From IMG/VR virus record IMGVR_UViG_3300031087_000514: 64,000 nucleotides of DNA. One strand, 5' to 3'. Each line of letters starts with the position of its first letter. Positions within the stretch are counted from its first letter, which is position 1. The notes under the pieces are model-generated. The model saw nothing but the letters and a program-made list of their open reading frames with translations. It did no database searches and had not been told where the DNA came from. Positions 18,445 through 59,978 of the stretch are shown here, piece by piece. This DNA is from a virus. Lineage: Duplodnaviria > Heunggongvirae > Uroviricota > Caudoviricetes. The translations under genes were made by a program, and so were the position numbers.

Positions 18445-18502
18445 CGTTTCGTATCCTTTTTCACATGCGTTTCGTAACTTCTTCTTCGTTAGATATATCA
18501 GC

Positions 18503-20027: not shown

Positions 20028-20133
20028 GTAAGTATTAATCGGCTAATTTTGAAAAAGGGGTCAATTTATCGTCGTTATGACGATAAACATGTTAGAATAT
20101 CCTCAGAAGATAATAACAAAGGACACCTTCCTC

Positions 20134-23946: not shown

Positions 23947-23996
23947 GAGCATGTCAAGCTAAAAATCCAGAGACCTGTAAATACCACGGCTATGCT

Positions 23997-24717: not shown

Positions 24718-25974
24718 ATGGTTTCAAAACCAGAACGGGGTCGATACTTGACCCTAGAAGATGTCCGTGTTTCATATAAGCACAAAGATGACACCATCCA
24801 TCTCACCTCAGCTGACCCAGATATTCCAAACGGGTCATTCTACATTACGTTGAATCGTGATACTCCAACCGAAGAAGCTCTCAGAGAACTACTGATTGAG
24901 CGCGGTTATATCAAAGAGAATGATGCTGTCTCTAAGCCAGAAGACACTCAACTGGATTCTATTTACTCATACCGCCCACGGAACCCATTACAGGATTTGC
25001 TTGTGGATAGTTTAGTAGGGAGAGGTAACGTCAACTTCCCTCGTTATGTCCATATTTCAGGACAGCCAGGATGTGGAAAAACATTTTTAGCGGCTCAAAC
25101 CGTGGAAGAAGCTTCTGCTATGGGAATCAATACATATATCATCTCTGCAGATGTACAAGCTTACCTTCCCAAAGTTCAAGGTACTTGTACAACTATAAAT
25201 TTACCAGATTTACCAGAAGGCTCTCTGAACCCTTTTGCTTTAGGTTTGAATGTAGATGAGATACTGAATTTTTTGATTAACTTTATTCTACCTTTGAATA
25301 TTGGGAATATTGATACGCCAGATGGTGCTTATTTTTACGCACAGTATCGTGATCTACTACGAAAAAGTATTGGTCTTGTAGCTACTTACGAGGAGCCTTC
25401 TTTAGATAAAATAGTAGAAAATTTAGAGTCAAAAGTTACATTTGATAGTAAAGTTCAGCTACAAACTTCATTAAAAAGGCTAAAAAAGACAGAATTCGGA
25501 CATCTTCTTTTTGGTACATCACTATACGTAAAAGATATGATTGTAGATAAACACATAATAATTGATACTGGGGCTTTGCCTTATGTTAGTGTGTCACTTT
25601 TGCCTGATACATACACCGTTGAACAATTGGCAGCTGTCCTTATCAAGAAAATAATTGTCAATATTCTCAATAAGAAAATAAACAATTCAAGTCGTCCCAG
25701 TTTGTTCATTATTGAAGAGTCGATAGATTTAGCTGAGGAGATGATTCCTATAATTCGTTCAAAAAATATTACGCTTATTACAATAAACCAAGAACCTATT
25801 ACCCAGTCTAATCTCCGTTTAAGTTCTTCTGCAAATCAGATGATTGGTCGTTCGTCCGACCGAAGCACCCAAGATGCAGTAGATTTGCCCTTAGACAAAC
25901 TGAGCACAGGAGAATTCTTTTGGTACGACATCAACACAGGGAACACTGAGTTTTATAAATCTGCTATTGATTAA
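24718..25974 (+). CDS. P-loop NTPase (Walker A GQPGCGKT, Walker B LFIIEES)
   Basis: AAGGAAAA RBS; C-terminal two thirds strikingly AT-rich. Confidence 0.6.
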   Translation: MVSKPERGRYLTLEDVRVSYKHKDDTIHLTSADPDIPNGSFYITLNRDTPTEEALRELLIERGYIKENDAVSKPEDTQLDSIYSYRPRNPLQDLLVDSLVGRGNVNFPRYVHISGQPGCGKTFLAAQTVEEASAMGINTYIISADVQAYLPKVQGTCTTINLPDLPEGSLNPFALGLNVDEILNFLINFILPLNIGNIDTPDGAYFYAQYRDLLRKSIGLVATYEEPSLDKIVENLESKVTFDSKVQLQTSLKRLKKTEFGHLLFGTSLYVKDMIVDKHIIIDTGALPYVSVSLLPDTYTVEQLAAVLIKKIIVNILNKKINNSSRPSLFIIEESIDLAEEMIPIIRSKNITLITINQEPITQSNLRLSSSANQMIGRSSDRSTQDAVDLPLDKLSTGEFFWYDINTGNTEFYKSAID

Positions 25975-27498: not shown

Positions 27499-28344
27499 AT
27501 GACCACTTTACAGAAGCACATCATTGAAACCCTCGGAGTGAAAGCGAAAGTCAACCCAGAGGAAGAGTTCCGCACTCGTGTAGACTTCCTCAAAGCTTTC
27601 ACTAAAAATGCAGGAACACGTGGATTCGTCCTCGGGATCAGTGGAGGGCAGGATAGTGCTCTGGCTGGATACGTTGCTCAGACAGCTGTTCGTGAGCTCC
27701 GTGATGAAACAGGCAAAGACTATGAATTCCTTGCCCTGCTCCTTCCATACGGTACACAGCGGGACGGGGATGAAGCAGTAACCATCGCAAAAGACTTCAT
27801 CAAAGCCGACCAGGTAATTGAATACAACATCAAAGACACTGTAGATGCTTTCGCAAACACCTTCAACACTATTGCAGATGCTGACCCTGCAAACGGTGAC
27901 AACCTTGCCGACTACCACAAAGGTAACGTCAAAGCACGTGTCCGCGCCATCACACAGTACGCATATGCTGGACAGCGCCAGCTTCTTGTTGTGGGGACCG
28001 ACCATGCAGCAGAAGCGGTCTCGGGATTTTTCACGAAGTTCGGGGACGGTGCTGCTGATGTTTTGCCTCTTAGTGGTTTAAATAAACGCCAGGGTAAAGA
28101 AGTTCTCCGTTTCTTGGGTGCTCCTGAATTTGTCATCACCAAAGCCCCTACTGCTGACCTTTTGGACACTAACGCAGGTCAGGCTGATGAGACTGAACTT
28201 GGCATCACCTACGATGTGCTGGATGACTACCTTGAAGGCAAGACTGTCGCAGAAGCTGCTCAGCAGAAGATTGAACTTCGTTACCTGGTGACTGAACACA
28301 AGCGTCAGCAGCCTGTTGACCCTTTTGCTGACTGGTGGAAGTAA
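27499..28344 (+). CDS. nadE: NH3-dependent NAD+ synthetase
   Basis: Canonical 281-aa NadE with SGGQDS PP-loop; AGGAAGGAA RBS. Confidence 0.85.
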
Positions 28345-34709: not shown

Positions 34710-34764
34710 CCTTTGCTCATGTTCTATATTTATCTACCAGTTAGATATAGAACATGAGCAAAGG
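34710..34764 (+). promoter_or_regulatory. 20-bp perfect inverted repeat sequestering the GTTAG box and start codon of the ART gene
   Basis: cctttgctcatgttctatat / atatagaacatgagcaaagg with 15-nt loop; ATG 34754 lies in the 3' arm; no U-run. Confidence 0.5.
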
Positions 34765-35662
34765 CATTAAACAAGCAGATGGAACACTCTGTTACGCAAA
34801 GAATCCAGATACCTGCAAAAACCATGGATCACCGTCACCTTTTGATCTTTTCGAAGCTGCGATGGCGAAAAAGGATATTGGTGGAAGACTCAATGCGCAA
34901 GTGATGTACAAAAAACACATGCATACCCAATTAGCTGCTCAGTTCCAAAATAACAAGCCTGCCGCAACACAGGTAATTTCGGGTTTTAGGGATTACAGTT
35001 CGCAGTCAGTAGAAGCATTGAAGGAATACAATGAAGAATATCAACAAGCTTCTACTAACTGGTCAGATGACCAAAGAACTGCAATCAAAGACTATACAGG
35101 TTTGAGCTACAAGAATGTAAATGAGTTCCTTCGTAATAAAGAGGAATGGTTAGAAAAAGCTACACCTCAATACAAAGATAAGATGGTAGCACATGTTAAT
35201 GAAGTAATTGAGCAGCTTGATTCTGTCATGGATCAGACATCTAATACGAAATCAAGAACTGTGTATAGAAATGTCTCACAAGACACTACGAAGGCTTTCA
35301 CGTCTTCTGAGGAGTTTGCTCATCGTAATGGCTGGGTTGAAGGTAAAGAGGTAGAATTTCCTTCTTATCTTTCAACATCCTACGACCCACACTACATGGC
35401 TCATCAGCTTGGACAGGATGAAAGCGAGCATACAGATGTTGTATTCGTAATGGAAACGAACAAGGGAGTTCCTGTTGATATGACTGCATTAGATGCCAAA
35501 GGTCACACGTATGTGCAAGACGCAGAGCGGGAGATTCTTCTTCCTCGCAGTATGCGTTTCAGGGTCAGTAAAGTAACTCGCAGTGTTGGTTTTGAACCCT
35601 ATGAAGAAAACAACAATAGTAGAGCTGTTTTCCCTCTGACTGTGTATCTTGAAGAGCTGTAG
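34754..35662 (+). CDS. ADP-ribosyltransferase (R-S-E class), third paralog
   Basis: VYRNVS, YLSTSY, QDAEREILLPR motifs; N-term CYAKNPDTCKNHG; GTTAG box 34740-34753. Confidence 0.7.
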   Translation: MSKGIKQADGTLCYAKNPDTCKNHGSPSPFDLFEAAMAKKDIGGRLNAQVMYKKHMHTQLAAQFQNNKPAATQVISGFRDYSSQSVEALKEYNEEYQQASTNWSDDQRTAIKDYTGLSYKNVNEFLRNKEEWLEKATPQYKDKMVAHVNEVIEQLDSVMDQTSNTKSRTVYRNVSQDTTKAFTSSEEFAHRNGWVEGKEVEFPSYLSTSYDPHYMAHQLGQDESEHTDVVFVMETNKGVPVDMTALDAKGHTYVQDAEREILLPRSMRFRVSKVTRSVGFEPYEENNNSRAVFPLTVYLEEL

Positions 35663-36807: not shown

Positions 36808-37851
36808 ATGCCAAAATTAATCATCCTCAGAGGAATCCCTGCGTCAGGGAAATCAACATACGCTCAAAAATGGGTTATGGAAGACCCTGCAAACCGTGTC
36901 CGCATTAACCGCGATGATATTCGTGAAGCGCTCACAGGTGATGCAACAAACCATAGTCGTGAGAAAGAAGTAACACAGTACCAGGAAGCGCTCATTGAGC
37001 GTGCTTTGAAAGAAGGTAAAGATGTCGCTTCTGACAACACAAATTTGAACACCAAATTCTTACCTGATACGATCAAGAAAGCGCAAGCTGTCGGCGCTAC
37101 AGTTGAGCACAAAGACTTCCCTATTACAGTGGATGAAGCTCTTCGTCGTAATGCTGGACGTGAACGCAAAGTACCAGAAGATGTCATTCGCAGAATGTAC
37201 AAGAGTTTAGGCCCTAAGGGTGAGTTCCCAGTGTTCCCTGGCTCATACCCTACGAAACCTTTTACTGCGCCAAACAGCCGTAAGCCAGCTGTCTGCTTCG
37301 ACATGGACGGCACATTGAACGATGTGTCAGGTGTTCGTCACTTCATTGACCCTCAGCCAGGCGCTAAGAAGCGTTTCAAAGACTTTGACTCATTCCACCG
37401 CATGTCTGAGTTTGAACCAGCTCATGAAGCTGTTTTGCAGTTAGCTAAAGATGCTCATGAATCAGGCTATGCTGTCCTCATCACCACTGCTCGTAGCGAA
37501 CCATATCGTGAGACAACACAGAAGTGGTTGGATGACCATAACGTGCCATACGAGAACATTTTCATGCGCGGTGAGAAAGACTATCGTAAAGACTACGATG
37601 TCAAGAAGGACATGTTCACTGAAATTGACAAACACTATGATGTTGTTCGTTGTGTTGATGACAACCCACAGGCTATTCAAGCGTGGAAGGAAAACAACAT
37701 TGCGGTGACAACAGTGCCGTTCAACTATGACGGACGTGAAACTCCTGTCGTCATCAACAACCCATTCCGTTCGGGTGTATGCATCCGTTGCGGCAAACCA
37801 TTCAAAGGTGAAGGCACATTAGGTCCAACCTGCCGAACAAAAGCTGCGTAG
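36808..37851 (+). CDS. polynucleotide kinase/3'-phosphatase paralog with C-terminal Cys-rich tail
   Basis: GIPASGKST P-loop, CFDMDGT HAD motif, C-terminal CIRCGKPF...GPTC; GTTAG box 36794-36807. Confidence 0.8.
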   Translation: MPKLIILRGIPASGKSTYAQKWVMEDPANRVRINRDDIREALTGDATNHSREKEVTQYQEALIERALKEGKDVASDNTNLNTKFLPDTIKKAQAVGATVEHKDFPITVDEALRRNAGRERKVPEDVIRRMYKSLGPKGEFPVFPGSYPTKPFTAPNSRKPAVCFDMDGTLNDVSGVRHFIDPQPGAKKRFKDFDSFHRMSEFEPAHEAVLQLAKDAHESGYAVLITTARSEPYRETTQKWLDDHNVPYENIFMRGEKDYRKDYDVKKDMFTEIDKHYDVVRCVDDNPQAIQAWKENNIAVTTVPFNYDGRETPVVINNPFRSGVCIRCGKPFKGEGTLGPTCRTKAA

Positions 37852-39858: not shown

Positions 39859-41340
39859 TTAGGCAGTTGCAATGCGAGCACGAGTGATAACAGTCTGCTC
39901 ATCGCCATTGAATGTGTCCAAGTCTTTGATAGTTGCACTGGATACAGTAAGCATGTCGCCGGCTTTGAACTCTTTCTCTCCGCTTGCCCACCATTTAAGT
40001 TCTTTTCCTTCATCAGTGGTCATAATAAGGAGAGTCTTGTAGCTGTCTCCGACATTAGGGATGTATGTTGGGATGAGCTGAGCTCGCTTTACTGTTACTG
40101 GCACGTTTCTGAGCTTATCGCCAATTTGACCAACATAACCTTGGGCTCTTGGTCGACTTTCACGTTCCTGGCGAGCTTGCTGCTTTTTCGCAGCAGCAAT
40201 AACGGAAACAACGTAGCCAACATGTTTGTAAGAAACATACTCTTGTGAGAGAAGCGTCTTCATGTTACGACCGTAATCATTATCCGTGTCAAAATGAGTG
40301 GTCTCTATTACGGAAGTCGCCGCGGCCTCATGGTCTTCAAGGTTGATATCGTTGTAACGGTTGTTATTGTTGGATGAGAAGAAGAAACTTTTCACTTCGG
40401 AGGCAGTAGAGTCTTGGCCTGTTTCTCTTTCAAGCATACGGGAACGATACTTCTCACCATTGTCTGAAATGGCCAGAGCTGCGGCTACAACGGATTTTGT
40501 TGGCAGCATGCTGTCCTGGCCACCCCAACGACGTTCACCGCGGTCTAAGTAATCGTCACCTTCTTCTGGGTCATAGTTGAGCGCCCACAAAGCTTTCGGA
40601 CGAACTCCTGAAAATGACTCTAAGCAGTTAGAACCGACCTGCTTGTATTCACCTGTGTCTTTGTTGCGAAGCAGGTAAGTTGATGAACGTCTACGATTAC
40701 TTCCACAGTGGTCACATTCAAAATGTTCAGGGGCATAACCGTTGAGTTCCTGACCAGGAACAACACGGGTGAGCATGGCTCCATCTTCTGTTTTGTCTAC
40801 AGCAGCAACAAAATCCCATCCTCCAACATGAAGCTCGGGATAAGTAAGGCTCATACGAACCATGTTAAAACGGTGACCTTCGTTGTCTTCTTCAACGAAG
40901 TGTTCAACTTCATAGTCGAACCGCTCTTCAACTCCTGCGCGGGTCAGTTTTCTGTTCGCAATATCAATACGGTGAACTGCTTCATCTAGCCTGGAAGCAG
41001 GGAAAACTGAAACGCCTTCTACCTTCTCTTCCACTGAGGCACGTAAACGTTCGCCATCTTCTAACAGCTGCTGGTATTTCTCTTTCTCAGTCCAGTCGTT
41101 GGTCTCAGCAACTTTGTTAGTGAAGAACTCTTGACCACTGTCTGTGGCTGCGTACTCTACGGAGGCTTCTTTGAGTTTTTCTGATAGAGTGTAACGATCT
41201 TGGATGTCAGTGGTCTCTTCTAACTGGGAAGATAAAGCACGGAACTTCTCTTCAACGCGATCTAAGTAAGAAGCGTGTGTTGCACCATGGTAGCGGCAGG
41301 CAGCTTTATTGATTGCTCTGCATTCACGTGTAGTAGTCAT
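39859..41340 (-). CDS. large hypothetical protein with N-terminal C-x7-C-x2-H motif and internal CDHCGS zinc-finger-like cluster
   Basis: N-term MTTTRECRAINKAACRYHGATH; GTTAG box immediately 5' of the ATG (plus 41341-41354, minus strand). Confidence 0.55.
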   Translation of the reverse strand: MTTTRECRAINKAACRYHGATHASYLDRVEEKFRALSSQLEETTDIQDRYTLSEKLKEASVEYAATDSGQEFFTNKVAETNDWTEKEKYQQLLEDGERLRASVEEKVEGVSVFPASRLDEAVHRIDIANRKLTRAGVEERFDYEVEHFVEEDNEGHRFNMVRMSLTYPELHVGGWDFVAAVDKTEDGAMLTRVVPGQELNGYAPEHFECDHCGSNRRRSSTYLLRNKDTGEYKQVGSNCLESFSGVRPKALWALNYDPEEGDDYLDRGERRWGGQDSMLPTKSVVAAALAISDNGEKYRSRMLERETGQDSTASEVKSFFFSSNNNNRYNDINLEDHEAAATSVIETTHFDTDNDYGRNMKTLLSQEYVSYKHVGYVVSVIAAAKKQQARQERESRPRAQGYVGQIGDKLRNVPVTVKRAQLIPTYIPNVGDSYKTLLIMTTDEGKELKWWASGEKEFKAGDMLTVSSATIKDLDTFNGDEQTVITRARIATA

Positions 41341-41409
41341 GTTCTATTTCTAACCAGCGAATCTCACAAAAAACCTTGATTAAGGTGTTTCGGTACGATA
41401 TTATAAAGG

Positions 41410-41440
41410 TTGCCGTTATACATTTGTTATAATTATTTCC
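41410..41440 (+). promoter_or_regulatory. extended -10 promoter (TGtTATAAT) upstream of the NlpC/P60 gene
   Basis: ttgttataat at 41425-41434. Confidence 0.35.
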
Positions 41441-41463
41441 AATTATCCCTACAGAAACAATTT

Positions 41464-42177
41464 ATGAGTACCACTTTACTGTCACCTATTTTTGCCATTT
41501 CGACTATTATTTCCACTGCCACTGTTCCGATCAACACTGTTCCAGCCCAGCAAGAAGTACCGACTGTTGATACCAGTGTTATTTACCAGACAACCGAAGA
41601 AGACGCTCAAACATACAACGTCGCTTCAAACGTTACAGAAGAAGACACCTCCCGTGATTCTTATACAGTGAAAGAAGCCCCTAAGCCTGTCACAGCTACT
41701 CCGACAGCCGTTTCTTCCAAAACTACTTCTATTCCTATTCAACACTCAGCGTTGACACAATCTACTGCTGCTCAGCAGACAACCACTGCCGCCTCAGCAT
41801 CTGGTACTACAAAAGAACGCATTGTTCAGTTAGCCCTTCAATATAAGGGAGTTCCATATGTGTTTGGTGGAGAGAACCCATCAGGTTGGGACTGCTCTGG
41901 TTACGTCAAGTGGGTTACCGCTAATGTAACTGGTATCAACTTCTCCCATGGTGTTAGTGCAGAAGCTCACTCTCAGTACACTCACGAGGTAACTCGTGCA
42001 GCTGCACAGCCAGGTGACTTTGTTGTCTTCTCTGGCACCGGTGGTTCTGAATACCACATTGGAATTTACTTAGGTAATGGACGTATGGTACATGCATCCA
42101 AGCCTGGTGATTTCACCAAAGAATCCATCATTGACTGGCCTGGAAGCAGTGTGCGTTTCTACTCATTGAACGGCTAA
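41464..42177 (+). CDS. NlpC/P60 (CHAP-like) cell-wall peptidase with N-terminal signal/TM and Ser/Thr-rich linker
   Basis: WDCSGYVKWV Cys and HIGIYLGNGRMVHAS His motifs. Confidence 0.7.
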   Translation: MSTTLLSPIFAISTIISTATVPINTVPAQQEVPTVDTSVIYQTTEEDAQTYNVASNVTEEDTSRDSYTVKEAPKPVTATPTAVSSKTTSIPIQHSALTQSTAAQQTTTAASASGTTKERIVQLALQYKGVPYVFGGENPSGWDCSGYVKWVTANVTGINFSHGVSAEAHSQYTHEVTRAAAQPGDFVVFSGTGGSEYHIGIYLGNGRMVHASKPGDFTKESIIDWPGSSVRFYSLNG

Positions 42178-42197: not shown

Positions 42198-43100
42198 ATG
42201 AGTACACAAACAAATCGCTGCCGAGCAAAGCACCCAGAAACATGTTGGAAGCACGGAACCGGGTTAGGCTTTGATGCCAACCGTGAAATCCGTCTTGTTA
42301 TGAAACAAGATCAAGCTTTACACAGCAAGCATGACATCTTCATGAAAGCCATGAAAACATATGACAGTACCCATCTGGCATCTGTTCTCATGGCTTTTGC
42401 TGAAAACTCCTCCACCGTCAATACCGAACGTTTCAAGAAAGCATTGCTTCTTGCTACTGATCTTCACAAGACTGACACTCGAGCTAACCGTGCGCATCAC
42501 GACCGCACACCATACATCGAACACCCTCTTCGTAACACTCTTCGTATCGTACGATACGGCTGTAAAGAAGAAAGTGTCCTTGTTGGATCACTCCTCCATG
42601 ACACCGTAGAGGACCATCCTTGGGAAATTGCACGTAACTACGCAAAAGAAGAACCACGTGATGAACACCATGCTCGTGAAATTGCTTACGACTACATTCG
42701 TAAAACATACGGTAAACGAGCTGCAAAAATTGTTGAAGGCATGTCTAACCCAATTATTGAGAACAAGTATATGCCAGCTGGTGAAAAGAACGTCATCTAC
42801 CGTGACCATGTTCTTGAAGCAATTGAAGACCCAGATGTCGCTATCCCAAAGATTTCTGACTTCACTGACAACGCTCTTTCCTTACACCACACCGAAGCTG
42901 GCATGTCAGCTACATCATTGTACAAGAAATCCACTAAGTATTTGATGGTTATTGACGGCATGATTTCACGAGTCAAGCGAGGATATGTAACAAAAGACCT
43001 TCCTATCTCAGAAGAAGGTTATAAGAACATTCTCTTCCAGCTTGAAGAAGGCAAGCTACGTTTGCTGTTCCTTAATAGAAAATATACTCCTGTCAAATGA
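42198..43100 (+). CDS. RelA/SpoT-type HD-domain (p)ppGpp hydrolase (small alarmone hydrolase) with N-terminal C-x7-C-x2-H motif
   Basis: RTPYIEHPL and SLLHDTVEDH HD motifs; N-term CRAKHPETCWKHG; GTTAG box 42184-42197. Confidence 0.7.
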   Translation: MSTQTNRCRAKHPETCWKHGTGLGFDANREIRLVMKQDQALHSKHDIFMKAMKTYDSTHLASVLMAFAENSSTVNTERFKKALLLATDLHKTDTRANRAHHDRTPYIEHPLRNTLRIVRYGCKEESVLVGSLLHDTVEDHPWEIARNYAKEEPRDEHHAREIAYDYIRKTYGKRAAKIVEGMSNPIIENKYMPAGEKNVIYRDHVLEAIEDPDVAIPKISDFTDNALSLHHTEAGMSATSLYKKSTKYLMVIDGMISRVKRGYVTKDLPISEEGYKNILFQLEEGKLRLLFLNRKYTPVK

Positions 43101-43330
43101 TGAGTATACTCCTTCATACAGATGGGCACGGTTCGTTCTGGCAAGAGTTTATCTCAATTGCTACGGACCCTGCCCATCTGTTATTCGAGCTGATCTTCTC
43201 AGTATTATTTGATGTAGTATTAGTCTCAGTCATTTGGGGTGTCATCATCAAGAAAATCATTATCCCCAAATTAAAACGCGATGTTCATCGTGAAATTGAT
43301 GCTGAACATGGGTTGAAGCCTCACGATTGA
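43097..43330 (+). CDS. small membrane protein
   Basis: ATGA overlap; 2 TM. Confidence 0.4.
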   Translation: MMSILLHTDGHGSFWQEFISIATDPAHLLFELIFSVLFDVVLVSVIWGVIIKKIIIPKLKRDVHREIDAEHGLKPHD

Positions 43331-44987: not shown

Positions 44988-46394
44988 ATGATTGCTAAGC
45001 TTATTAAATCGTCACGAGGTGCTATTGACCTGGCCTCTATACTCGTAGCGGTCATTATTGTTGGCCTTATTTCTGGTGTTGTTTCTGTTAGCGTCTTTGC
45101 TGTCATTCCATGGACTCATGATAACGCCGCTAAGACTCATCTTGGCTCTATCGCTGTAGCGCAAGCTTCTTACAAAGGAGCCTATGAAAAATACGGGGAC
45201 TATAAAGGATTAGTCAAAGAAGAGCTTCTTCCTGTACGAGAAAAAACTTGCTCAGTTACTTCAAACCAAGGTAGAACCTATACCTCAGCCACACAATCAC
45301 CTACAGGCAAAGTCTTCATCAATACGAATACTGTTTCTCAGCCATGGCAAGCAGCGGTCGGTGAAACTACCTGTTTAGGGACAGTGAAAGAAAACAACGA
45401 ATTAGAGCCACTGCCACCAGCTACTGAACCAACTCCTACGGTTCCAACGGTAACTCCGAAACCAGGTACGGAAAGCAGTTTTACACTGCGTTGCGATAAA
45501 ACAACTTCAATGCTTTTACCAACAGCATCAGTAAATGCATCAGCGCAATGGAGTGATGGTGTGGAACAGTCCGCGACAACGGGTTCGTTCAATCAACGAA
45601 CACTTGCCGCAGGCGTGACCTATAAAGTTACGATTACTGGGACGTTTGGGGTGCTGAGTATGCTTCCCCTGAATATTGACCAAAAGAATTGTGTTCGGTC
45701 GATGGATTTATGGGGTTCTGCCAGTGCTACTGTTGTAGCTGATTATGCTTTTGCCGGGGCTAATAATTTGACTTCTATCCCTCAGAACATTCCAGCAACA
45801 GTCACCTCAGTAGCGGGTATGTTCCAATCTAATAAGACATTCAATCAGGATTTGAGTACATGGGATACTGCAAACATCAAAAATATGAGCAATATGTTCA
45901 ATGACTCAATATACACGAAGTCATTGAATAGTTGGAACGTTTCTAATGCTACAAATCTCAGTTTTATGTTTGCAAGTTCCTCCTACAACCAACCATTAGA
46001 TAATTGGAAAACGGCTAATGTTCTTAGCATGGAGGGGATGTTCCAGAACAATCTTGTGTTCAATCAAAATATTTCCAGCTGGAATACCACAAATTTGACT
46101 TCCACTGCATCTATGTTTGCAGGAGCTAAACTGTTCAATCAGCCATTGAACACTTGGACCGTGAATAATGTTGTCAATATGAATAGCATGTTCAAAAATG
46201 CTACAAGCTTCAATCAGCCATTGAACAACTGGAATACATCTAAGGTGACAAACGTCAGTGGTATGTTCTTGAATGCCTCATCATTTAGTCAAAATCTTAG
46301 TGGATGGAAACTCCCTAATATTCTTGTATTCCTTGATTTTGCTCTGGGAAGTAAACTCAACATACTTCAATTACCAAAACTGCCAATCTTATAG
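44988..46394 (+). CDS. membrane-anchored surface protein with about 7 DUF285 (BspA-type) repeats
   Basis: N-terminal signal-anchor, Pro/Thr linker, repeated F-NQ-L--W-T-N---M--MF units. Confidence 0.65.
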   Translation: MIAKLIKSSRGAIDLASILVAVIIVGLISGVVSVSVFAVIPWTHDNAAKTHLGSIAVAQASYKGAYEKYGDYKGLVKEELLPVREKTCSVTSNQGRTYTSATQSPTGKVFINTNTVSQPWQAAVGETTCLGTVKENNELEPLPPATEPTPTVPTVTPKPGTESSFTLRCDKTTSMLLPTASVNASAQWSDGVEQSATTGSFNQRTLAAGVTYKVTITGTFGVLSMLPLNIDQKNCVRSMDLWGSASATVVADYAFAGANNLTSIPQNIPATVTSVAGMFQSNKTFNQDLSTWDTANIKNMSNMFNDSIYTKSLNSWNVSNATNLSFMFASSSYNQPLDNWKTANVLSMEGMFQNNLVFNQNISSWNTTNLTSTASMFAGAKLFNQPLNTWTVNNVVNMNSMFKNATSFNQPLNNWNTSKVTNVSGMFLNASSFSQNLSGWKLPNILVFLDFALGSKLNILQLPKLPIL

Positions 46395-46515: not shown

Positions 46516-47637
46516 ATGGATAGTGTACCATCCCCAGTTAAAACAATTTCATTAGTATTTCAAAGTTCCCGCGCTGCCATAGACTTAGCCTCCATCATGG
46601 TTGGTGTCATCATCATTGGCCTTATTGGTAGTGTCATTGGCGCAACGGTTTTTGCAGTCATTCCCTGGGCGCAGGACAATGCAGCCCGAGCCTCCCTTTC
46701 CCAAGTCCGAACAGCAGAAGATGCTCAAAGAGGACTCAAAGAAAAATATGCTGGGCATGAAGCACTCAGCGATAATGGATTTTTACAAAGCCAACCAGGT
46801 CTAGCTGTTCGCACTAACGACGCTGGTACCTGCTATGTTGGCGTTATTGTTTCAGCAACAGGAAACATGTTCTGGACTTCGGACAAAACAGGCATAGCTG
46901 CTTATAAGAGCACAGCGCTACCAACCAGTCCTTGCTTAGATGTCACAGGACCAGGTAACTTAGCTGCTGTAACTTCACCTACTACTGGTGGAACAGCTGC
47001 TTCTGTTGCTTCGAAAGTTACAGAAGACGGTGCTGGAAGTTATGAAACAAACGGTTCAGGGGGTTCTTCAACCTCATTATCTGGTCGTGCATGGTATGCC
47101 TACTATCGTGGCTCTTTCAACGAAAAGCAAAATGCTTCTCTTCCCTTACTCAAACAGCTTACTGGAGAACAAGTAACACCAACAACATCAGCTCAGCATA
47201 CAAACTTATGGCTCAACGTCTACCACGTTCATGCTTATGCTGATGGCAAAGAACTGAAAGTATCTGGAGATAATGATGCAGTAGACCATCCATACACAGG
47301 GTTTGACATCAATATTTCTTACGATAAAATCAATAACACCATTTTGTATTACTTCCATAACAACGCAGGGACTTCTGTGATTGGTGATAATAGCGATGCA
47401 ACTATGACCAGGTTATGGAAAAATGGCTATGTTACATTTGAAGTGCCAGGATACACAGGAACAAACGTATTGCACTTCAATGCTCAAAACCCTCGTTCAT
47501 CTGACCCAAGTAACACTAACCGTCTTTCCGATTGGACAGGAACACTCAAATGTGGTGAGGGATACGGTAATGATAATAACTGTGCAAGTTTGAGCAGTTA
47601 CGGATACAACTGGCAGAGCATTATTCCTAAATCCTAA
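46516..47637 (+). CDS. membrane-anchored surface protein, paralogous N-terminus to 44988..46394, different C-terminal domain
   Basis: Shared RAAIDLASIMVGVIIIGLIGSV...AVIPWAQDNAA anchor. Confidence 0.55.
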   Translation: MDSVPSPVKTISLVFQSSRAAIDLASIMVGVIIIGLIGSVIGATVFAVIPWAQDNAARASLSQVRTAEDAQRGLKEKYAGHEALSDNGFLQSQPGLAVRTNDAGTCYVGVIVSATGNMFWTSDKTGIAAYKSTALPTSPCLDVTGPGNLAAVTSPTTGGTAASVASKVTEDGAGSYETNGSGGSSTSLSGRAWYAYYRGSFNEKQNASLPLLKQLTGEQVTPTTSAQHTNLWLNVYHVHAYADGKELKVSGDNDAVDHPYTGFDINISYDKINNTILYYFHNNAGTSVIGDNSDATMTRLWKNGYVTFEVPGYTGTNVLHFNAQNPRSSDPSNTNRLSDWTGTLKCGEGYGNDNNCASLSSYGYNWQSIIPKS

Positions 47638-47732: not shown

Positions 47733-48265
47733 ACCTCTCCATATAAGAGATGGTTCACTCGCAAACCCTGCGTTGAGGTACCCTCCGCCAGCTCATTGAC
47801 GAAAGTCACAGTTTGCTGGGTGAAGCTATCCCGTTGTTTAACGACAAGTATGCAGATGTCTTAGATGGAATTTTCAGAAAGCAGAAATATCAGAAAGCAA
47901 CAGCATTCTTTGAGTTCTATGGGGAGAACAGCTTCGCAGGATTCCATGAAGATGAGCCTCACGATGTGACACTTTTCGATGTACATATTTATAAGCACGG
48001 TCTGATGTCACCTCAGGAGTTCAACAAGGTCTTCAAGCATGTTGACACCGCGCCCTTACTTTTTCAAGGGAAGCCAACTGCTGAGTTTGTTGAATCTGTT
48101 CAGGAAGGCACCTTAGAAGGCATGACCTTTGAGGGTGTTGTCTGCAAAGCAGGTTATGATAATCGGAACAAGTTAGCTTCATTCAAAATCAAGAATAAAG
48201 CTTGGTTAACTCGCTTGAAAGATAAGTGTGGGAATGATGAGAAAATGTTCACCGCGTTAGCATAA
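47733..48265 (+). pseudogene. decayed nucleotidyltransferase ligase: out-of-frame motif I remnant (IRDGSL, 47733-47753) plus ORF carrying motifs IIIa/IV/V (TLFDVHI, EGVVCK, KIKNKAW)
   Basis: No in-frame start or lysine nucleophile; TTG-only ORF 47813-48265. Confidence 0.4.
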
Positions 48266-48364: not shown

Positions 48365-49804
48365 ATGTGTAGAAATAAAGAAGAAGGCGGTCGCCGCTGT
48401 ACCGATCACAATGCATTCGGACAGCAGATCAGAAACCTTCAAGCGAAAAAGCAGTATCATGCAAAATATGGTCACACTGACAAAGTAACTTCAGTTGTTG
48501 AAGAAATGGATGCTCTTCGTGACAAGAAGCAGCATCTTTTAGAAGATGGAGGAACTGTTCTTCCATACACGATGCCATTGACCCCGAATGCGGAAAGAGT
48601 CCTCAACCAGCTCCGTGAAGACGGGTATGAGCCTTATGTTGTTGGAGGAAGTGTTCGTGACGCTCTTCTCGGATTAGACTCCAAGGATGTTGACATTGAA
48701 GTCTACAAAGCTACACCAGAAGAAGTCATTGCTTCCCTTCGTAAAATTGGTCAAGTGGATGAAGTGGGTAAATCATTTGGTGTCTTGAAAATCCAAATTG
48801 GGGGAGAAGACTTTGATGTCTCTCTTCCTCGTAAAGACTCTAAAATTGGTGACGGACACAGAGGGTTCACTGTTGAAGTAACTCCTGAACTCTCACTCCA
48901 TGAAGCAACTGCTCGTCGCGATTTCACCATCAATGCTCTCATGTATGACAACGAAATGGGATTCATCGTTGACAAGCACGGTGGTTTGAAAGATTTGGAG
49001 AAAGGTCATCTCCGTCATGTTTCAGAAGCTTTTGATGAGGACCCGCTCCGTGTTCTTCGTGGAGTACAGATGGCTTCACGTTTTGATATGGAACTCCACC
49101 CAGACACAGTAGTCAAAGCTCAAACACTGAAAGACCAGTTCGGTGATTTGGCTCGAGAGCGCGTCCAAACTGAATTCCAGAAGCTGTACCAGAAAGGTAA
49201 AGCTCCTCACAAAGCGTTCAAGCTTTTGCAGGATACAGGTTGGGACGCAAACTTCTCTGGTGTTGCAGAAGTGAATGGAAAATCTCTGCGTCGTAATCTG
49301 CAAAGAACTCAGGAGTTGACTGACCAAGGAGTCATTCCTAAGGAGAAAGGTGCATACATCCTTTCAGCGAACATTGCATCTCATCTGAATGATAAAGATG
49401 CAAGAAACTTCTTGACATACACTACTGTTGGTGATGATTTGAAGAACAAGTCATACAACCTTTCTCGTGTTGAGCTACCAGTGAAGCAAGGAAAAGCTTC
49501 TTTGCGAGCATGGGCAAGAGGCATGCCTCGCCACGTCACCATTCAAGACTGGGTTCTACTCAGTAAAGCCAAAGGTGACAAGGAAGTAGCAGAGCGTATT
49601 GAACGCAAAGCAGAAAAACTTGGCATTTTGCACAGTCCTGAATCTGACATGGTATCAGGAGATGATGTACTTGCTGCTTTCCCTGAACGTAAACCAGGTC
49701 GTTGGATGAAAGAAGCCTTAGATGCAACGCGTAACGCTCAGTACTCTGACGTGTTCCGTGACCGCGAAAAAGGTATTGCCTGGGTCAAAGCAAACATTAG
49801 CTGA
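48365..49804 (+). CDS. cca: tRNA nucleotidyltransferase (CCA-adding enzyme) with about 60-aa N-terminal C-x9-C-x2-H extension
   Basis: VVGGSVRDALLGLDSKDVDIEV head motif; N-term MCRNKEEGGRRCTDHN; AGAAGGAAA RBS. Confidence 0.8.
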   Translation: MCRNKEEGGRRCTDHNAFGQQIRNLQAKKQYHAKYGHTDKVTSVVEEMDALRDKKQHLLEDGGTVLPYTMPLTPNAERVLNQLREDGYEPYVVGGSVRDALLGLDSKDVDIEVYKATPEEVIASLRKIGQVDEVGKSFGVLKIQIGGEDFDVSLPRKDSKIGDGHRGFTVEVTPELSLHEATARRDFTINALMYDNEMGFIVDKHGGLKDLEKGHLRHVSEAFDEDPLRVLRGVQMASRFDMELHPDTVVKAQTLKDQFGDLARERVQTEFQKLYQKGKAPHKAFKLLQDTGWDANFSGVAEVNGKSLRRNLQRTQELTDQGVIPKEKGAYILSANIASHLNDKDARNFLTYTTVGDDLKNKSYNLSRVELPVKQGKASLRAWARGMPRHVTIQDWVLLSKAKGDKEVAERIERKAEKLGILHSPESDMVSGDDVLAAFPERKPGRWMKEALDATRNAQYSDVFRDREKGIAWVKANIS

Positions 49805-50395: not shown

Positions 50396-51211
50396 ATGGC
50401 GTTGTTCTCTCGGAAACATAAATGCAAAGCAGCTAACCCTGCTGCTTGCACTGATCCTCGTTGCCCAGATAAGAAAGTTCTTTTGCAAGCCTTTGAATCA
50501 GCTTTATCAGAAGGCGATTACCAGAAGATGTTCAACGCAAGGGACGAGATGGAAAAATTCAAGCCTATCTCCATTACTCCTGCGAGAACTCCTGAGGACT
50601 GGGACACGCTTCTTGTCAAGTCAGATGAGAACGAGTATAAAACTGTCAGCATTATGCCAAAGAAGCAAGCTGCTTCCTATGATACCAGTGTCATTCCTCA
50701 GTTCGATTCTTTCTCCGCCATTCAGGAGTACTTTTCCAAGGATAAGAATGTCTTGTTGAAATTGAAAAATTTGGATGAGCAGATGCCAGAAGCACAATGT
50801 ATCTCTCTGAGAGAGTTCTATGTTTCGCCTGCATTGAGAGGGCAAGGAGTCGGCAAATGGATTCTCAATATCATCACAAAGCATGCTGATGACCATGGAG
50901 CTATTCTCTTTTTGACTCCTACCTCGTCAGGTGACAATAAGCTTTCACCTGACCACGTGGATTATGTAAAACGTGCAGTTCAGCATCGTTCTCGTATCAC
51001 AGACTTCTACTCCAAGCATGGTTTCCAACAAAATCCTTTCTGGTTTCCTTGGGGTGGCAAAGATGAACTCACAAACGAACCATGGAATCCTGACAAGCAG
51101 GCTCAAACCCAATTCTCAGAGACCGCAAAAAACTATTTGAGCAACTACACTGTCGCCCAAATGATGAGAAAGCCAGCAGCGGGTTGGCCAAAGCCCTGGG
51201 TAACCCGCTAA
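50396..51211 (+). CDS. GNAT-family acetyltransferase with N-terminal C-x7-C-x-DPRCP motif
   Basis: RGQGVGKWIL motif A; N-term CKAANPAACTDPRCP; GTTAG box 50382-50395. Confidence 0.55.
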   Translation: MALFSRKHKCKAANPAACTDPRCPDKKVLLQAFESALSEGDYQKMFNARDEMEKFKPISITPARTPEDWDTLLVKSDENEYKTVSIMPKKQAASYDTSVIPQFDSFSAIQEYFSKDKNVLLKLKNLDEQMPEAQCISLREFYVSPALRGQGVGKWILNIITKHADDHGAILFLTPTSSGDNKLSPDHVDYVKRAVQHRSRITDFYSKHGFQQNPFWFPWGGKDELTNEPWNPDKQAQTQFSETAKNYLSNYTVAQMMRKPAAGWPKPWVTR

Positions 51212-54701: not shown

Positions 54702-57700
54702 ATGTGTAATGCGATCCGTGATGGCGGTCAACGTTGTGCCGTCCACCAACACACAAGCACAGCTGCTATTCGTACAGTAGCAGCTCATACCGGATTAGAA
54801 GTCCGACAGGTTGAAAGTGTCTTCCGTGAACTCCGCCGTGAAGGTGGACGTAACGCTGCACCAGTGCCGCAATCAACCTTAGATGCCATTCAGACAGAGT
54901 TTCGCACCATTGCTGAGGCTTTACCTGTTCACGCTTTATATGAGCGTCAGATGGCTTCTGCTGCAGAAACCAATGAAGAACAGACTCCTCAGACTCACTA
55001 CGCTTTACAGCGTTTACTGACGCGTTCTACTGAACGTGCTGCGAGCTTACAGGATGCTTTCAACGACTTAGCAAACCGGACAGGATATGCCGCTGAGGAA
55101 CTTCGTTACCGGTATCAGACAGAGTATGCTGCTGTTCCAACAGGTAACGGTGTTGACATCCCAGAGGAAATGACCCCCGCAAACCGAGCACGAGCTCGCC
55201 GGTCAGGTCTTCCTTATGACCGTCCATCAGTTGTTGCTTTCGAACGCACTCGTGAGCTTGCAGAGAGAAATCATGTTTACGAGGAAGCTAACCGTCGTAT
55301 AACATCATGGGAATCTCCTAACGCTGAAAACTCAAGCATTGCAGTCATGGGTTATGATGAAGGGCGTTTGGAACTGTATTTCACAAACGCCCCTGAACAG
55401 CTATACTCTTACCAGAATGTTCCAGAAGACTTGTGGAACCGTCTACGTGAATCTCCTCGTCCAGGAATGATTTATTCACGTAGCATTAGTGGTAATGAAG
55501 AGTTCCAGTATGCCTCAGCAGCAGAAGCTGGACGCGATGCTTACCGTGTTCGCTGTGCAGCTTGTGGACAGTTCCGTGCCGCAGTTCATTCCTGCCCAGA
55601 ACGCGCTCATCGTGAGCGCTTAGTCCGCGCTGGATACACAACTGAGGAAATCGTTGAAGCTTTGGCCAACGGCACTGATGTTGTAGAAGAATCAGTTGCT
55701 TCTGAAACTTCTCATGAATTATTTGCTCGTATTCCTCAGGCCGATTCTGCCGATGAGTCGTCTGTCAGAGAGTTTATTGCTTCTGAACACTTCCAGGAGA
55801 GAATGCCATTCGGTCAAGCTGTCCAAACTGAAAATGGCCGTTGGGTCGTTGATTTAGTTGACTACTCAAACGAAGAGCAATCTGAGAACCCCTTCGGCGA
55901 CAATCGTTTCTTTGACTCTCGTTACAGCTCTATCAATAACCGTGGAACGTCTCGCTGGACTCATGACTTTGCAGACCGTGATAATCCTACCTCAGATGAA
56001 CTCATGGAAATTAGCCAGTACCATACTGCGTACAGAAGTTTATCTGGTGTTAGAACACTGCATTATGTTAACGTTGTGCGCGATAATTTACAAAGCATGG
56101 ATTTCCGCATGCCAGTTCAGGCAAGTTTCACAGGACTTAACTCTCCTGATGATTCAGGCCGCTACCTTCCCTCAGGTACAGTAACTGGGTCTTTGACTCT
56201 TGGACGTTTAGAAGAAGGAGAACGTCTTGAAGATGCTGTTGCCCGTGAGCGGAACTTGCGTTGTGATTGTGTCGACTACCAGGAAAATTACGACTGTATT
56301 CATGTTCGTACAGTAACTCGTAACCCTTATGTCTTCTTAGCAAACCGCAGTAACCAGTTTATTGAAGGTGAACACCTGCGCGATTACCGTTCAGGTTTCA
56401 TCACTGCGATTTCTGAAGAAGAAAGTATGCGCAGTTACATGCGTGATAACGGCATGACTCGTGAAGAAGCATCGGCAGCGATTGAAGCCGAACGCGCTGA
56501 GCGTCGCCGTATTGAAGAAGAGCAGCAAGCATATTACCAGGCTTCTCTTGCTGACCGTCGCCGTATTGACATGGAACGTGGTACTCGTAATGCACAACGT
56601 TTAGCTACAACTAATGCTGCGGTTATTGCTGAGAATGATGCTCATCGTGCTCGTATGGCTGCTCGTTGGGAAGAAGTTGAACCAGGTTACTCTGATAACG
56701 TGGATGCTTTGTACGAAGACTATGTGACCACTATGCGTCGTCGTCGTGCAGGTGAAGAAGTTCTTGATTACCGTACTGAGAATGTCACTGATGGTATTTG
56801 CTCTCCAGAACCTGGTGGACGTGCGTTTGGTGTTGAGTTAGAGTTCGATATTGACCCAAACACTAACCGTTATCAAGCTCTGCAAACAATTGCTCGTGAA
56901 CTCCACGAAGCAGGTCTTACTGAAAATGACTACCAGACCAGCTACCATTCTGCTCGCAGAAGTGGATGGGGTTCTTGGTCATTTGAAGAAGACTCCACTG
57001 TTTCAGGTGAACTCGTTTCTCCTATCATGCGAGATACTCCTGAACATTGGCAACAGTTGCAGACAGCTCTTGAAATCATCAAGCGTAATGGTGGAATCTC
57101 AACAACACGTACTGGTTCCCACGTTCACATTTCAACAGCATCATACGAATCCTCACCAGCAAAGCACATGGAACTTATTCGTCAGGTAAATGCTAACGAA
57201 GAAATGATGTATCGTTTAGCTTCTAGTCCCGAGCGTGGAAATCACCGTGGTATGCAATGGTGTGGTCCTAACGTAAATACAGGTGTAGATGATATCTCAG
57301 CTGATGTTTCCAGTGCGCATAACGTTATGCATGACCATGTTGGACATGGCTATGCTATGAACTTCGAGTCCACATATCAGCAGGATTACCGTCGTTCAAA
57401 CGTTGAATTCCGTATGTGGGACGGTACCCTTGATGCAGCTGTTATCCAGCGTCAAGTTATGGTTTCTGCTGCTATGACAGACTACGCTGAGCGTAATGTC
57501 ATTGAAAACGGTAGAACTTCTGCTGTTCCTCGTCAAACTGTCGGTGGAGAAAGAGAAGTTCAGCGACAGATTCATACTGGACGTGGACGGTTAAGTCGTG
57601 AACACTTTGAACAAACAATGGGAAACGCTCCTCAATTTATGGACAACCTATTCCGTCGTCAAGAGGACCGTCGTCGTGTTGCTGAGCTGTTCTCCATTAC

Positions 57701-57749
57701 CAATTGGGCTGATTACAGTGACAATTACGAGGAAGACTACGATTACTGA
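54702..57749 (+). CDS. 1015-aa multidomain protein: N-terminal C-x9-C-x2-H motif, internal C-x2-C...H-x-C cluster, C-terminal amidoligase-like (GS-like, GVELEF start) domain
   Basis: MCNAIRDGGQRCAVHQH; FGVELEFDID...RTGSHVHIS; AGAAGGAAAA RBS. Confidence 0.55.
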   Translation: MCNAIRDGGQRCAVHQHTSTAAIRTVAAHTGLEVRQVESVFRELRREGGRNAAPVPQSTLDAIQTEFRTIAEALPVHALYERQMASAAETNEEQTPQTHYALQRLLTRSTERAASLQDAFNDLANRTGYAAEELRYRYQTEYAAVPTGNGVDIPEEMTPANRARARRSGLPYDRPSVVAFERTRELAERNHVYEEANRRITSWESPNAENSSIAVMGYDEGRLELYFTNAPEQLYSYQNVPEDLWNRLRESPRPGMIYSRSISGNEEFQYASAAEAGRDAYRVRCAACGQFRAAVHSCPERAHRERLVRAGYTTEEIVEALANGTDVVEESVASETSHELFARIPQADSADESSVREFIASEHFQERMPFGQAVQTENGRWVVDLVDYSNEEQSENPFGDNRFFDSRYSSINNRGTSRWTHDFADRDNPTSDELMEISQYHTAYRSLSGVRTLHYVNVVRDNLQSMDFRMPVQASFTGLNSPDDSGRYLPSGTVTGSLTLGRLEEGERLEDAVARERNLRCDCVDYQENYDCIHVRTVTRNPYVFLANRSNQFIEGEHLRDYRSGFITAISEEESMRSYMRDNGMTREEASAAIEAERAERRRIEEEQQAYYQASLADRRRIDMERGTRNAQRLATTNAAVIAENDAHRARMAARWEEVEPGYSDNVDALYEDYVTTMRRRRAGEEVLDYRTENVTDGICSPEPGGRAFGVELEFDIDPNTNRYQALQTIARELHEAGLTENDYQTSYHSARRSGWGSWSFEEDSTVSGELVSPIMRDTPEHWQQLQTALEIIKRNGGISTTRTGSHVHISTASYESSPAKHMELIRQVNANEEMMYRLASSPERGNHRGMQWCGPNVNTGVDDISADVSSAHNVMHDHVGHGYAMNFESTYQQDYRRSNVEFRMWDGTLDAAVIQRQVMVSAAMTDYAERNVIENGRTSAVPRQTVGGEREVQRQIHTGRGRLSREHFEQTMGNAPQFMDNLFRRQEDRRRVAELFSITNWADYSDNYEEDYDY

Positions 57750-59390: not shown

Positions 59391-59978
59391 ATGACAAAGG
59401 GTTTGCTTATCGTTGACGTGCAGAACGATTTTATTGAAGGGGGTAGCCTGGCAGTCGCAGGAGGCGAGAAAGTCGCTCTAACGCTCGCAGAGCACCTCCT
59501 GGATGCTGATTACCATGCGCTCATCACCACTCAGGACTGGCACATTGAGCCTGGAAACCATTGGGCAGAAACTCCCGACTATGTGGACACCTGGCCTGTG
59601 CATTGCGCTGCAAACACTGCTGGTGCATCGGTACGCCCTGAGCTGGCGGCTGCCATTGTTTCCAAGGTCAGCGAACAGCGAAGCCTTCGGTATTTGCGCA
59701 TTGTCAAGGGTGAGTATGAAGCAGCTTACTCAGGTTTTGAAGGCCGCGACTTCCTTGGAGGGAATGAGAAGGTTCCTACCCTTATCCGTGAGCTTGGTGT
59801 AGATGAGCTGGACATTGTAGGACTGGCAACAGACCATTGTGTTCGCGCTACTGTTCTGGACGCTCTGAAAGCGGGATTCAAGGTAAACGTCCTCACCGAC
59901 TACGTTGCAGGTGTCGACCCTGAGCGCTCCAAAGCAGCTCTTGCTGAAATGGAAACAGCAGGCGCAACTCTCGTCTAA
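59391..59978 (+). CDS. pncA: nicotinamidase PncA (isochorismatase family)
   Basis: LLIVDVQNDF, K, ATDHCV catalytic D-K-C triad context; TAGGAG RBS. Confidence 0.75.
   Translation: MTKGLLIVDVQNDFIEGGSLAVAGGEKVALTLAEHLLDADYHALITTQDWHIEPGNHWAETPDYVDTWPVHCAANTAGASVRPELAAAIVSKVSEQRSLRYLRIVKGEYEAAYSGFEGRDFLGGNEKVPTLIRELGVDELDIVGLATDHCVRATVLDALKAGFKVNVLTDYVAGVDPERSKAALAEMETAGATLV

Follow-up and report, generated by a model that had tools for sequence, protein, structure and literature searches.

Why would a very large phage-like replicon encode an alarmone hydrolase, and why would that enzyme begin with a short segment that also begins otherwise unrelated proteins of the same lineage? The question is raised by a 64,000-nucleotide stretch of DNA, here called the window, from the IMG/VR virus record IMGVR_UViG_3300031087_000514 (Caudoviricetes). 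An earlier note, made from the letters alone, had described the product of its open reading frame (ORF) at 42198..43100 as a phage-encoded SpoT/Mesh1-type alarmone hydrolase carrying a family tag. The explanation that fits best overall, to which we give a probability of about one half, is that the protein is an active small alarmone hydrolase (SAH) in a phage-like carrier, that it would remove 3′-pyrophosphates from alarmones and tRNA ends beside a co-encoded repair kit, and that its N-terminal tag is a module.

According to the ORF list and the sequence, the hydrolase ORF lies on the + strand, runs from ATG to TGA and encodes 300 residues plus stop. Its hydrolase features are:

42423..42887, + strand, residues ~76-230: HD catalytic core of the RelA/SpoT homologue (RSH) hydrolase type, placed by the family profile against PDB and by TIGR00691.
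42504-42530, + strand, residues 103-111: motif RTPYIEHPL, read from the sequence; in the alignment to 3nr1 and 3nqw, H109 falls on the metal ligand H35 of MESH1.
42591-42617, + strand, residues 132-140: motif LLHDTVEDH, read from the sequence, from invariance and from the hidden Markov model (HMM) alignment.
42849..42872, + strand, residues 218-225: motif KISDFTDN, placed by alignment to Drosophila Mesh1 (3nqw, domain 2).

In the HMM alignment H134-D135 correspond to MESH1 H61 and D62, which are metal ligands, and E138-D139 to the catalytic pair E65 and D66. Within KISDFTDN, D221 and N225 correspond to D122 and N126 in the K-L-A-D-K-L-x-N helix, and by profile alignment R95 corresponds to R24, the conserved Arg ahead of the first His (MESH1 residues are numbered by our own count along the MESH1 sequence in the printed alignments). 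All eight catalytic and metal-binding residues of RelA/SpoT-type hydrolases (R95, H109, H134, D135, E138, D139, D221 and N225) are invariant among the 49 relatives of the family alignment, as are H90, Y106, I107, P110, N113, R116, N184, Y201, H204, K218, D224, K247 and Y248. The two motifs that the earlier note had read as those of (p)ppGpp/(p)ppApp hydrolases, RTPYIEHPL and LLHDTVEDH, are therefore present in a real ORF with their key residues conserved, and are not a chance HD-like string. Relative to the solved enzymes of ~180-200 residues, the protein is extended at both ends, by residues 1-75 (the tag and residues 21-75) in front and by two long helices (238-265 and 272-295) at the C-terminus, and its ED helix is followed by an inserted stretch (residues ~141-160).

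The hydrolase had 222 homologues when 5.8 billion proteins were searched. The profile from the 49-sequence alignment, run against all PDB sequences, matched RelA/SpoT-type hydrolases only: RelH (7qoe, E = 2e-13), human and Drosophila MESH1 (3nr1 and 3nqw, E = 2e-10), and further Rel (1vj7, 5xnx), SpoT (7qpr), lmo0812 and a (p)ppApp hydrolase. TIGR00691 (spoT_relA) gave a local match (E = 5e-10) to its hydrolase part only; Pfam and NCBIfam matches were of the hydrolase HD type, with synthetase, TGS and ACT domains absent, so the protein is single-domain. An AlphaFold2 model on the same alignment reached a mean predicted local distance difference test score (pLDDT) of 94.9 and a predicted template modelling score (pTM) of 0.92. 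The top 24 PDB matches of this model in Foldseek were all RSH hydrolases (Mesh1, SpoT, RelH, Rel, lmo0812, PaSAH and the (p)ppApp hydrolase), beyond which the scores collapse; target-normalised TM-scores were ~0.64-0.77 for small alarmone hydrolases, with Mesh1, RelH, SpoT and Rel at 0.72-0.77. The matches in a viral structure library were SAH-like HD proteins of jumbo phages and giant viruses.

Judged by profile, predicted fold and invariant residues, the protein is very probably an active SAH, a single-domain RSH, predicted to be metal-dependent (Mn2+) and to cleave 3′-pyrophosphate groups. The class named in the earlier note is borne out by an active site that appears complete on all three counts. 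The solved SAHs, RelH of C. glutamicum (7qoc, 7qod; 7qoe), MESH1 (3nr1, 5vxa) and the P. aeruginosa SAH (6z3n, 6z3o), have the same HD fold and share the metal and catalytic residues, but they are only 14-20% identical to the query and lack its extra terminal elements and post-ED insertion. Since identity to MESH1 is ~19% and the architecture differs, the protein is not a Mesh1 orthologue.

By sequence the hydrolase falls in a distinct SAH subfamily of ~250 residues, found in Actinomycetota and their jumbo phages. A profile search of 1.84 billion cluster representatives returned 427 clusters at E <= 1e-30, most of them ~250 residues long and untagged; untagged members of this length occur in the Actinomycetota Agromyces, Glaciihabitans, Rhodoglobus, Frondihabitans, Arthrobacter, Micromonospora and Dactylosporangium, and IMG/VR contigs of 170-214 kb also carry relatives. 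The nearest relative in a cultured phage is gp271 of the Microbacterium jumbo phage A3Wally, a 'SpoT-like ppGpp synthesis/degradation protein' that is also found in Cece, Big4 and Zooman and is 39-40% identical over residues 50-231. Like the query it belongs to the ~250-residue subfamily, is single-domain and comes without a synthetase, and it adjoins a tRNA nucleotidyltransferase and an adenylyltransferase, whereas the CCA-adding enzyme of the query lies 5 kb downstream. It differs in being untagged, at 255 residues, and in its genome of 195 kb and ~56-58% GC (loci read), against ~880 kb and 44% GC for the carrier of the query. Among Microbacterium phage records, one of 191,968 bp encodes a hydrolase with 40% identity.

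Virus-encoded SAHs have precedents. PaSpo of Salmonella phage SSU5 and PbcSpo of phage PVP-SE1 are likewise single-domain RSH hydrolases without an adjacent synthetase (PMC7229694), and a bypass of alarmone- or toxSAS-based abortive infection was proposed as their role (Jimmy et al. 2020, PMC7229694). The query differs from them in its ~300 residues with N- and C-terminal extras, its Cys-Cys-His tag and its separate, Actinomycetota-linked subfamily. All toxSAS toxins tried against these stand-alone phage enzymes of PVP-SE1 and SSU5 were neutralised by them (PMC7229694); in Actinobacteria, modules of the toxSAS kind are widely distributed (PMC7229694; PMC9712102). The purpose suggested by the earlier note, blunting of the stringent response or of ppApp-toxin-based abortive infection, is reasonable and already published as a concept. 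Because phage SAHs and their anti-toxSAS role are known, the core finding is an expected auxiliary function; what is new here is the tag and the carrier genome.

The genes around the hydrolase point to a more particular role. Those that bear on it are:

41410..42177, + strand: NlpC/P60 cell-wall peptidase with a hydrophobic N-terminus (Pfam NLPC_P60, E = 1.6e-21), 20 nt upstream of the hydrolase.
43097..43330, + strand: 77-residue ORF with one hydrophobic helix, overlapping the hydrolase stop by 4 nt and called as a gene on all four contigs.
48365..49804, + strand: tagged CCA-adding/poly(A) polymerase-family nucleotidyltransferase, N-terminus MCRNKEEGGRRCTDH (Pfam PolyA_pol, E = 9e-24), 5 kb downstream of the hydrolase.
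36808..37851, + strand: T4-type polynucleotide kinase/phosphatase (PNKP), one of two in the window (Pfam HAD_PNKP plus AAA_33).
7735..8865 (- strand), 18428..19741, 15553..16455, 36808..37851, 47813..48265 and 48365..49804: duplicated RNA-repair set, comprising two T4 Rnl1-type ligases, two PNKPs, a small RNA-ligase-like ORF and the CCA-adding enzyme.

Within 10 kb of a hydrolase homologue, a homologue of the CCA enzyme is present at 20 of the 164 loci that are viral or metagenomic and at 0 of the 80 cellular ones (p = 3e-4); for PNKP the counts are 14 of 164 and 1 of 80. Several toxSAS, CapRel included, pyrophosphorylate the CCA end of tRNA, and the SAHs MESH1 and ATfaRel reverse this modification and restore aminoacylation (10.1101/2021.04.30.441581). 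Recurrence of the hydrolase beside the CCA-adding enzyme and PNKP therefore points to a role in the repair of tRNA ends pyrophosphorylated by toxSAS. In the mechanism that we propose, the enzyme would strip 3′-pyrophosphates off host (p)ppGpp and/or (p)ppApp during infection and may also clear tRNA CCA ends modified by toxSAS/CapRel-type abortive-infection toxins; acting with the co-encoded CCA-adding enzyme, PNKPs and RNA ligases, it would keep tRNA and translation running. Activity on tRNA CCA ends is a better match to the surrounding genes than blunting of the stringent response alone, and the association of hydrolase, CCA enzyme and PNKP gives the hydrolase a testable role within a viral tRNA-repair kit.

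The NlpC/P60 gene and the hydrolase are possibly co-transcribed: a site resembling a promoter was seen at 41376-41404, and none resembling a terminator between the two genes, the counts of the scan not being above shuffled background. The trio of NlpC/P60, hydrolase and 77-residue protein is kept in a relative (locus L174) at 56, 71 and 68% identity.

The second question is what the first residues of the enzyme are. The hydrolase N-terminus, MSTQTNRCRAKHPETCWKHG, reads MSTQTNR-C8-RAKHPET-C16-WK-H19-G20; after the tag core, G24, A27 and I31 are also conserved (to nt 42290). The tag and its occurrences in the window are:

42216..42257, + strand, residues 7-20: tag core of the hydrolase, R-C8-RAKHPET-C16-WK-H19-G20, a putative Cys2-His metal knuckle.
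34754..35662, + strand: tagged ADP-ribosyltransferase, N-terminus MSKGIKQADGTLCYAKNPDTCKNHG (Pfam ADPrib_exo_Tox, E = 3e-19).
39859..41340, - strand: tagged 493-residue protein, N-terminus MTTTRECRAINKAACRYHG, whose body matches phrog_2319 (E = 1.7e-57).
602..1630, 1661..2692, 34754..35662 and 39859..41340 (- strand): the first four of eight further tagged ORFs, with Cys-Cys-His/Cys variants.
48365..49804, 50396..51211, 54702..57749 and 60047..60886: the last four of these, with Cys-Cys-His/Cys variants.

The eight further ORFs encode three ADP-ribosyltransferases, the phrog_2319 protein, the CCA-adding enzyme, two GNATs and a 1015-residue KTSC plus amidoligase protein. Among 69 tagged homologues of the hydrolase, C8 is conserved in 96%, A10 in 91%, C16 and H19 in 100% and G20 in 99%. 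In a six-frame regular-expression scan the strict motif C.A.{4,6}C.{2,3}HG occurred four times in the window (ORFs at 23943, 34754, 39859-41340 on the - strand, and 42198) and eight times in 170 kb of the lineage, every time within ~10 residues of the start. The reversed motif gave 0 matches, and the controls gave two, neither of them N-terminal, in 1.4 Mb of cellular DNA and none in 1.4 Mb of IMG/VR DNA. A looser N-terminal Cys-Cys-His/Cys pattern is found in 19 of 135 ORFs (14%), against ~2% in two control sets (24/1214 and 29/1809; Fisher p = 3e-9 and 6e-11). The family tag of the earlier note is thus a genuine shared module, by this controlled census and by conservation in the 69 homologues.

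Recurrent forms of the tag are C-x-A-K-x-P-x-T-C-x-x-H-G, K-G-I-x-Q-x-D-G-T-x-C-Y-x(3-5)-C-x-x-H-G, C-S-K-x-x-G-x-x-C-R-L-H-N-P, M-C-x(3)-P-G-P-R-C-S-x-H and C-x(6-9)-C-x-D-P-R-C-P. A longer form, [F/Y]-H-x-N-x2-G-x4-C-x-A-x4-C-P-F-x-H-G ... E-E-A-x3-Y, occupies the same place in orthologous hydrolases on other contigs of 0.35-0.9 Mb (GC 34-61%) and on two IMG/VR contigs of ~200 kb. Among the 150 best cluster representatives found for the subfamily, ~40% bear the tag in some form. Its partners other than the hydrolase are ADP-ribosyltransferases (6), CCA-adding/poly(A) polymerase enzymes (3), GNAT acetyltransferases (3-4), a 5′-nucleotidase (NT5C), the 1015-residue KTSC plus amidoligase protein, a helix-turn-helix protein, an RNA ligase and ~25 proteins without a Pfam domain. 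The 493-residue protein has tblastn matches only in large phages (Rhodococcus phages Finch and E3, Gordonia phage Stormageddon and Vibrio phages), and these never cover the tag; since its phage homologues are untagged, the tag is a mobile N-terminal module.

The tag has no counterpart in Pfam. Ten short and eight long tag peptides gave only noise in Pfam at E <= 10 (DUF7202 at 0.01-0.3, CCCH fingers at 0.03-0.1), one long tag used as tblastn query had no significant match in 50,697 cultured phage records or 72,556 plasmids, and the tag is not described in the polyvalent-protein paper. Tagged closer relatives of the hydrolase (40-95% identity) are confined to metagenomic contigs, many of 0.6-1.0 Mb, and tagged homologues are absent from 185,579 GTDB species representatives (one genome per species). 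In two genomes of the lineage the hydrolase occurs in a tagged and in an untagged version, L181 and L225 on a 791 kb contig and L180 and L251 on a 725 kb contig, which suggests duplication followed by gain of the tag. In the preferred reading the ~20-residue N-terminal Cys-Cys-His knuckle was gained by the enzyme in this lineage. As a separate observation, the ORF at 23943..24617 has a perfect tag, ACQAKNPETCKYHG, and has no ATG, GTG or TTG between the in-frame stops and the tag; ATA at 23943 is the sole candidate start, and the ORF may have an unusual start codon or be a decaying gene.

We infer that the tag is a small metal-binding module that would give a cohort of takeover and repair enzymes some common property, for example localisation, partner binding or packaging. 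It is present on ~14% of the ORFs of the lineage, and its function could throw light on the ways in which giant elements arrange or deliver their enzymes. A tentative extension, which we regard as doubtful, is that short and long tags form one uncatalogued family and serve as a new sorting or delivery signal, through packaging and co-injection or through recruitment to one site, in record-size phage-like replicons of 0.35 to ~1.0 Mb; if so, no phage-like genome seen so far would be larger than these carriers.

Phage T4 packages its ADP-ribosyltransferase Alt and its internal proteins by means of a short N-terminal capsid-targeting sequence, which is not cysteine-rich and is cleaved off. By functional analogy, in that a short N-terminal signal there too stands on unrelated proteins including an ADP-ribosyltransferase, the tag might be a capsid-targeting or co-injection signal, so that the hydrolase and the other tagged enzymes would be packaged, enter the host with the DNA and act before transcription. 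The placing of the tag at the very start of many enzymes that are otherwise unrelated and of kinds typical for the early takeover of a host, the sharing of genomes by tagged and untagged hydrolases, and the setting of the hydrolase between a cell-wall peptidase and a small membrane protein, a late- or lysis-type-looking neighbourhood, would all suit such delivery. We nevertheless think this reading, which is the virion- or early-delivered hydrolase of the earlier note, rather unlikely. The tag resembles the T4 signal in its N-terminal position and not in sequence, and has no similarity to known capsid-targeting sequences; no prohead protease or cleavage motif was identified; the tag is modelled confidently, residues 11-40 having pLDDT 90-96 as a loop and one helical turn joined directly to the confident helix 23-35; one long-form query did not find the tag in the cultured phage records; and the viral nature of the carrier is itself unproven.

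What, then, is the carrier? The exact hydrolase protein is present on contigs of 878,479, 880,603 (ENA ERZ27247428, k141_538707) and ~883,000 bp (883,042 bp in the JGI version) from independent samples, at differing gene offsets, as expected of a complete circular or permuted genome; the carrier has ~0.88 Mb and 44% GC. Among the products of the window are T4-type Rnl1 and Pnk, two copies of each, and Alt-like ADP-ribosyltransferases, and it also has genes for RNase H, dCMP deaminase and NAD synthesis; window, flanks and related loci also hold NucS, DnaK without GrpE or DnaJ, ClpC, a GyrB/GyrA-type topoisomerase and DnaG, and relatives add thymidylate synthase, dihydrofolate reductase and ribonucleotide reductase. 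Directly downstream of a hydrolase homologue on a 532 kb contig (L086 11001..15141) stand an rIIA-like gene (HATPase_c_3, 764 residues) and rIIB (PF26926, 595 residues). Another relative, on the 725 kb contig JAAIGE0101188732.1 of GCA_011800935.1 (L087/L180 750..15115), has small orphan ORFs interspersed with ten tRNA genes over 20 kb; five of these tRNAs are near-identical tRNA-Leu (UAA x3, CAA x2), two have 4-base anticodon calls and one only has an encoded CCA. In the window itself neither a tRNA nor, at gathering score, any Rfam family was found, and apart from a trivial 350-bp ClpC match no near-identical DNA was found in the phage and plasmid collections.

DnaK (10015..11868) is 72-74% identical to the DnaK of Micrococcales and 61% to that of the 725 kb relative, a pattern that suggests host capture or uneven evolutionary rates, a DnaK identity matrix not separating vertical from horizontal origin; the GyrB-like protein (61226..63331) is ~34% identical to bacterial GyrB. 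Together with the gene set and the absence from GTDB, these identities make the picture expected of a very large virus of Micrococcales-like hosts. The carrier's likeliest identity is that of a giant phage, or phage-like element, with hosts among Micrococcales-type Actinomycetota. It is probably a phage or phage-like virus; a cell is a less likely identity, and some other giant mobile element less likely again. Complete-looking and absent from reference collections, a carrier of ~0.88 Mb would, if viral, extend the known size range of phages.

Several observations weigh against the combined reading. The single hydrolase sequence scores below the Pfam gathering thresholds (HD 20.9 against 22; HD_4, PF13328, 18.1 against 27.2); many family members have a precomputed PF13328 match, and with the profile E value of 2e-13 against solved SAHs this makes divergence, and not another fold, the explanation. 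Specificity for ppGpp, ppApp, pyrophosphorylated tRNA or NADPH is not readable from sequence. The short tag shows only three conserved candidates for metal ligands, to which the long form adds a His. Linkage to CCA enzyme and PNKP is recurrent yet a minority pattern (~12%). Genes for capsid, portal or terminase did not turn up in the 64 kb window with 20 kb flanks (<10% of the genome) or in ~200 kb read from relatives. The size of ~880 kb would also put the carrier above the largest known and accepted phage genome, of 735 kb (June 2026 review, PMC13282480). The lineage also has genes of cell-like character: an MFS (major facilitator superfamily) transporter, signal peptidase I, Wzy, HtrA, a T2SSE ATPase with pilin-like proteins, and HisRS, GluRS and CysRS. 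On these grounds the word 'phage-encoded' in the earlier note is plausible only: the phage-like auxiliary genes on ~880 kb contigs speak for it, the lack of virion genes in the loci read and the size against.

Another possibility is that the carrier is a cell, an ultra-reduced one living on Actinomycetota as parasite or epibiont, with the hydrolase a housekeeping enzyme and the tag a lineage-specific feature of its proteome. To the T2SSE ATPase, the three aminoacyl-tRNA synthetases and the other genes just listed can be added DnaK, ClpC, GyrB, GyrA, DnaG and SPFH, and contigs of 0.6-1.0 Mb are typical of reduced bacteria. Against this, the GTDB representatives contain no tagged homologue, and no ribosomal protein, rRNA or Rfam RNA was seen in the loci examined. 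Only ~37% of the called genes in the lineage loci have any Pfam match, leaving ~63% without, and in one relative a 20 kb stretch holds 35 ORFs, mostly tiny orphans; relatives have rIIA/rIIB and a redundant tRNA array; the housekeeping genes are incongruent, DnaK being 73% identical to Micrococcales and GyrB 34% to bacteria; and no (p)ppGpp synthetase gene was seen near the hydrolase. We consider a cellular parasite unlikely, and a phage-like carrier remains our preference.

Some further observations concern the carrier. The ORFs at 44988..46394 and 46516..47637 have prepilin-like hydrophobic N-termini (…RGAIDLASI…), the first with DUF285 and BspA-type repeats and the second without a Pfam match. 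One relative has a T2SSE ATPase of PilB/GspE type together with a DsbA-like gene (L253 1..1129); pilin-type genes are unusual for a phage. The GyrB-like gene is followed (L169 12109..18289) by a GyrA/ParC-like subunit, a DNA methyltransferase and a DnaG primase with a DnaB-binding domain. A Saccharibacteria epibiont effector, a candidate prompted by the 0.6-1 Mb contigs and 44% GC, was rejected on the absence of tagged GTDB homologues, the Micrococcales affinity of DnaK and the T4-like genes; the GTDB scan found only two homologues in Saccharimonadales, distant and untagged (28-32% identity), and nothing relevant was found in the literature on Saccharibacteria effectors, ADP-ribosyltransferases and ppGpp.

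The substrate could also be another one. MESH1 has been reported as an NADPH phosphatase, as cited in 10.1101/2021.04.30.441581, and is among the top structural matches of the hydrolase, its NADPH complex 5vxa included; the enzyme might act mainly as a MESH1-like NADPH phosphatase, or on other 2′/3′-phosphorylated nucleotides, and feed the NAD+ economy of the ADP-ribosyltransferases. The window does contain three of these transferases, two NAD synthases, an NMNAT-like enzyme and an isochorismatase, the NAD module being:

20077..23335, 27499..28344 and 59391..59978: two NAD synthases, a 2OG-Fe(II) oxygenase, a cytidylyltransferase/NMNAT-like protein and an isochorismatase.

Identity to MESH1 is only ~19%, however, the NAD genes lie 14-22 kb from the hydrolase, and the neighbours that recur are tRNA-end enzymes and not NAD enzymes; we judge this explanation quite improbable beside the alarmone and tRNA-end activity proposed above. 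It is a separate observation that the module adjoins many NAD-consuming enzymes, with a WGR-PARP just upstream of the window (L170 4410..5711).

That the hydrolase is the type IV antitoxin of a toxSAS pair on the same element, like C. marina ATfaRel, is very improbable: SAH antitoxins exist (PMC7229694), but no gene with a RelA_SpoT synthetase domain lies within +/-10 kb here or was seen in seven further loci from relatives (precomputed Pfam tables), PADLOC gave no defence-system match for the hydrolase or nine neighbouring or tagged proteins, and we conclude that the protein is not a toxin-antitoxin antitoxin.

Elsewhere in the window, the ORFs at 24718..25974 and 16890..17777 have similar N-terminal segments (…TFLTSDSPDF… and …IHLTSADPDIP…), and the larger of the two has a weak AAA_10/KaiC-type P-loop match (E = 7e-5, below cut-off).

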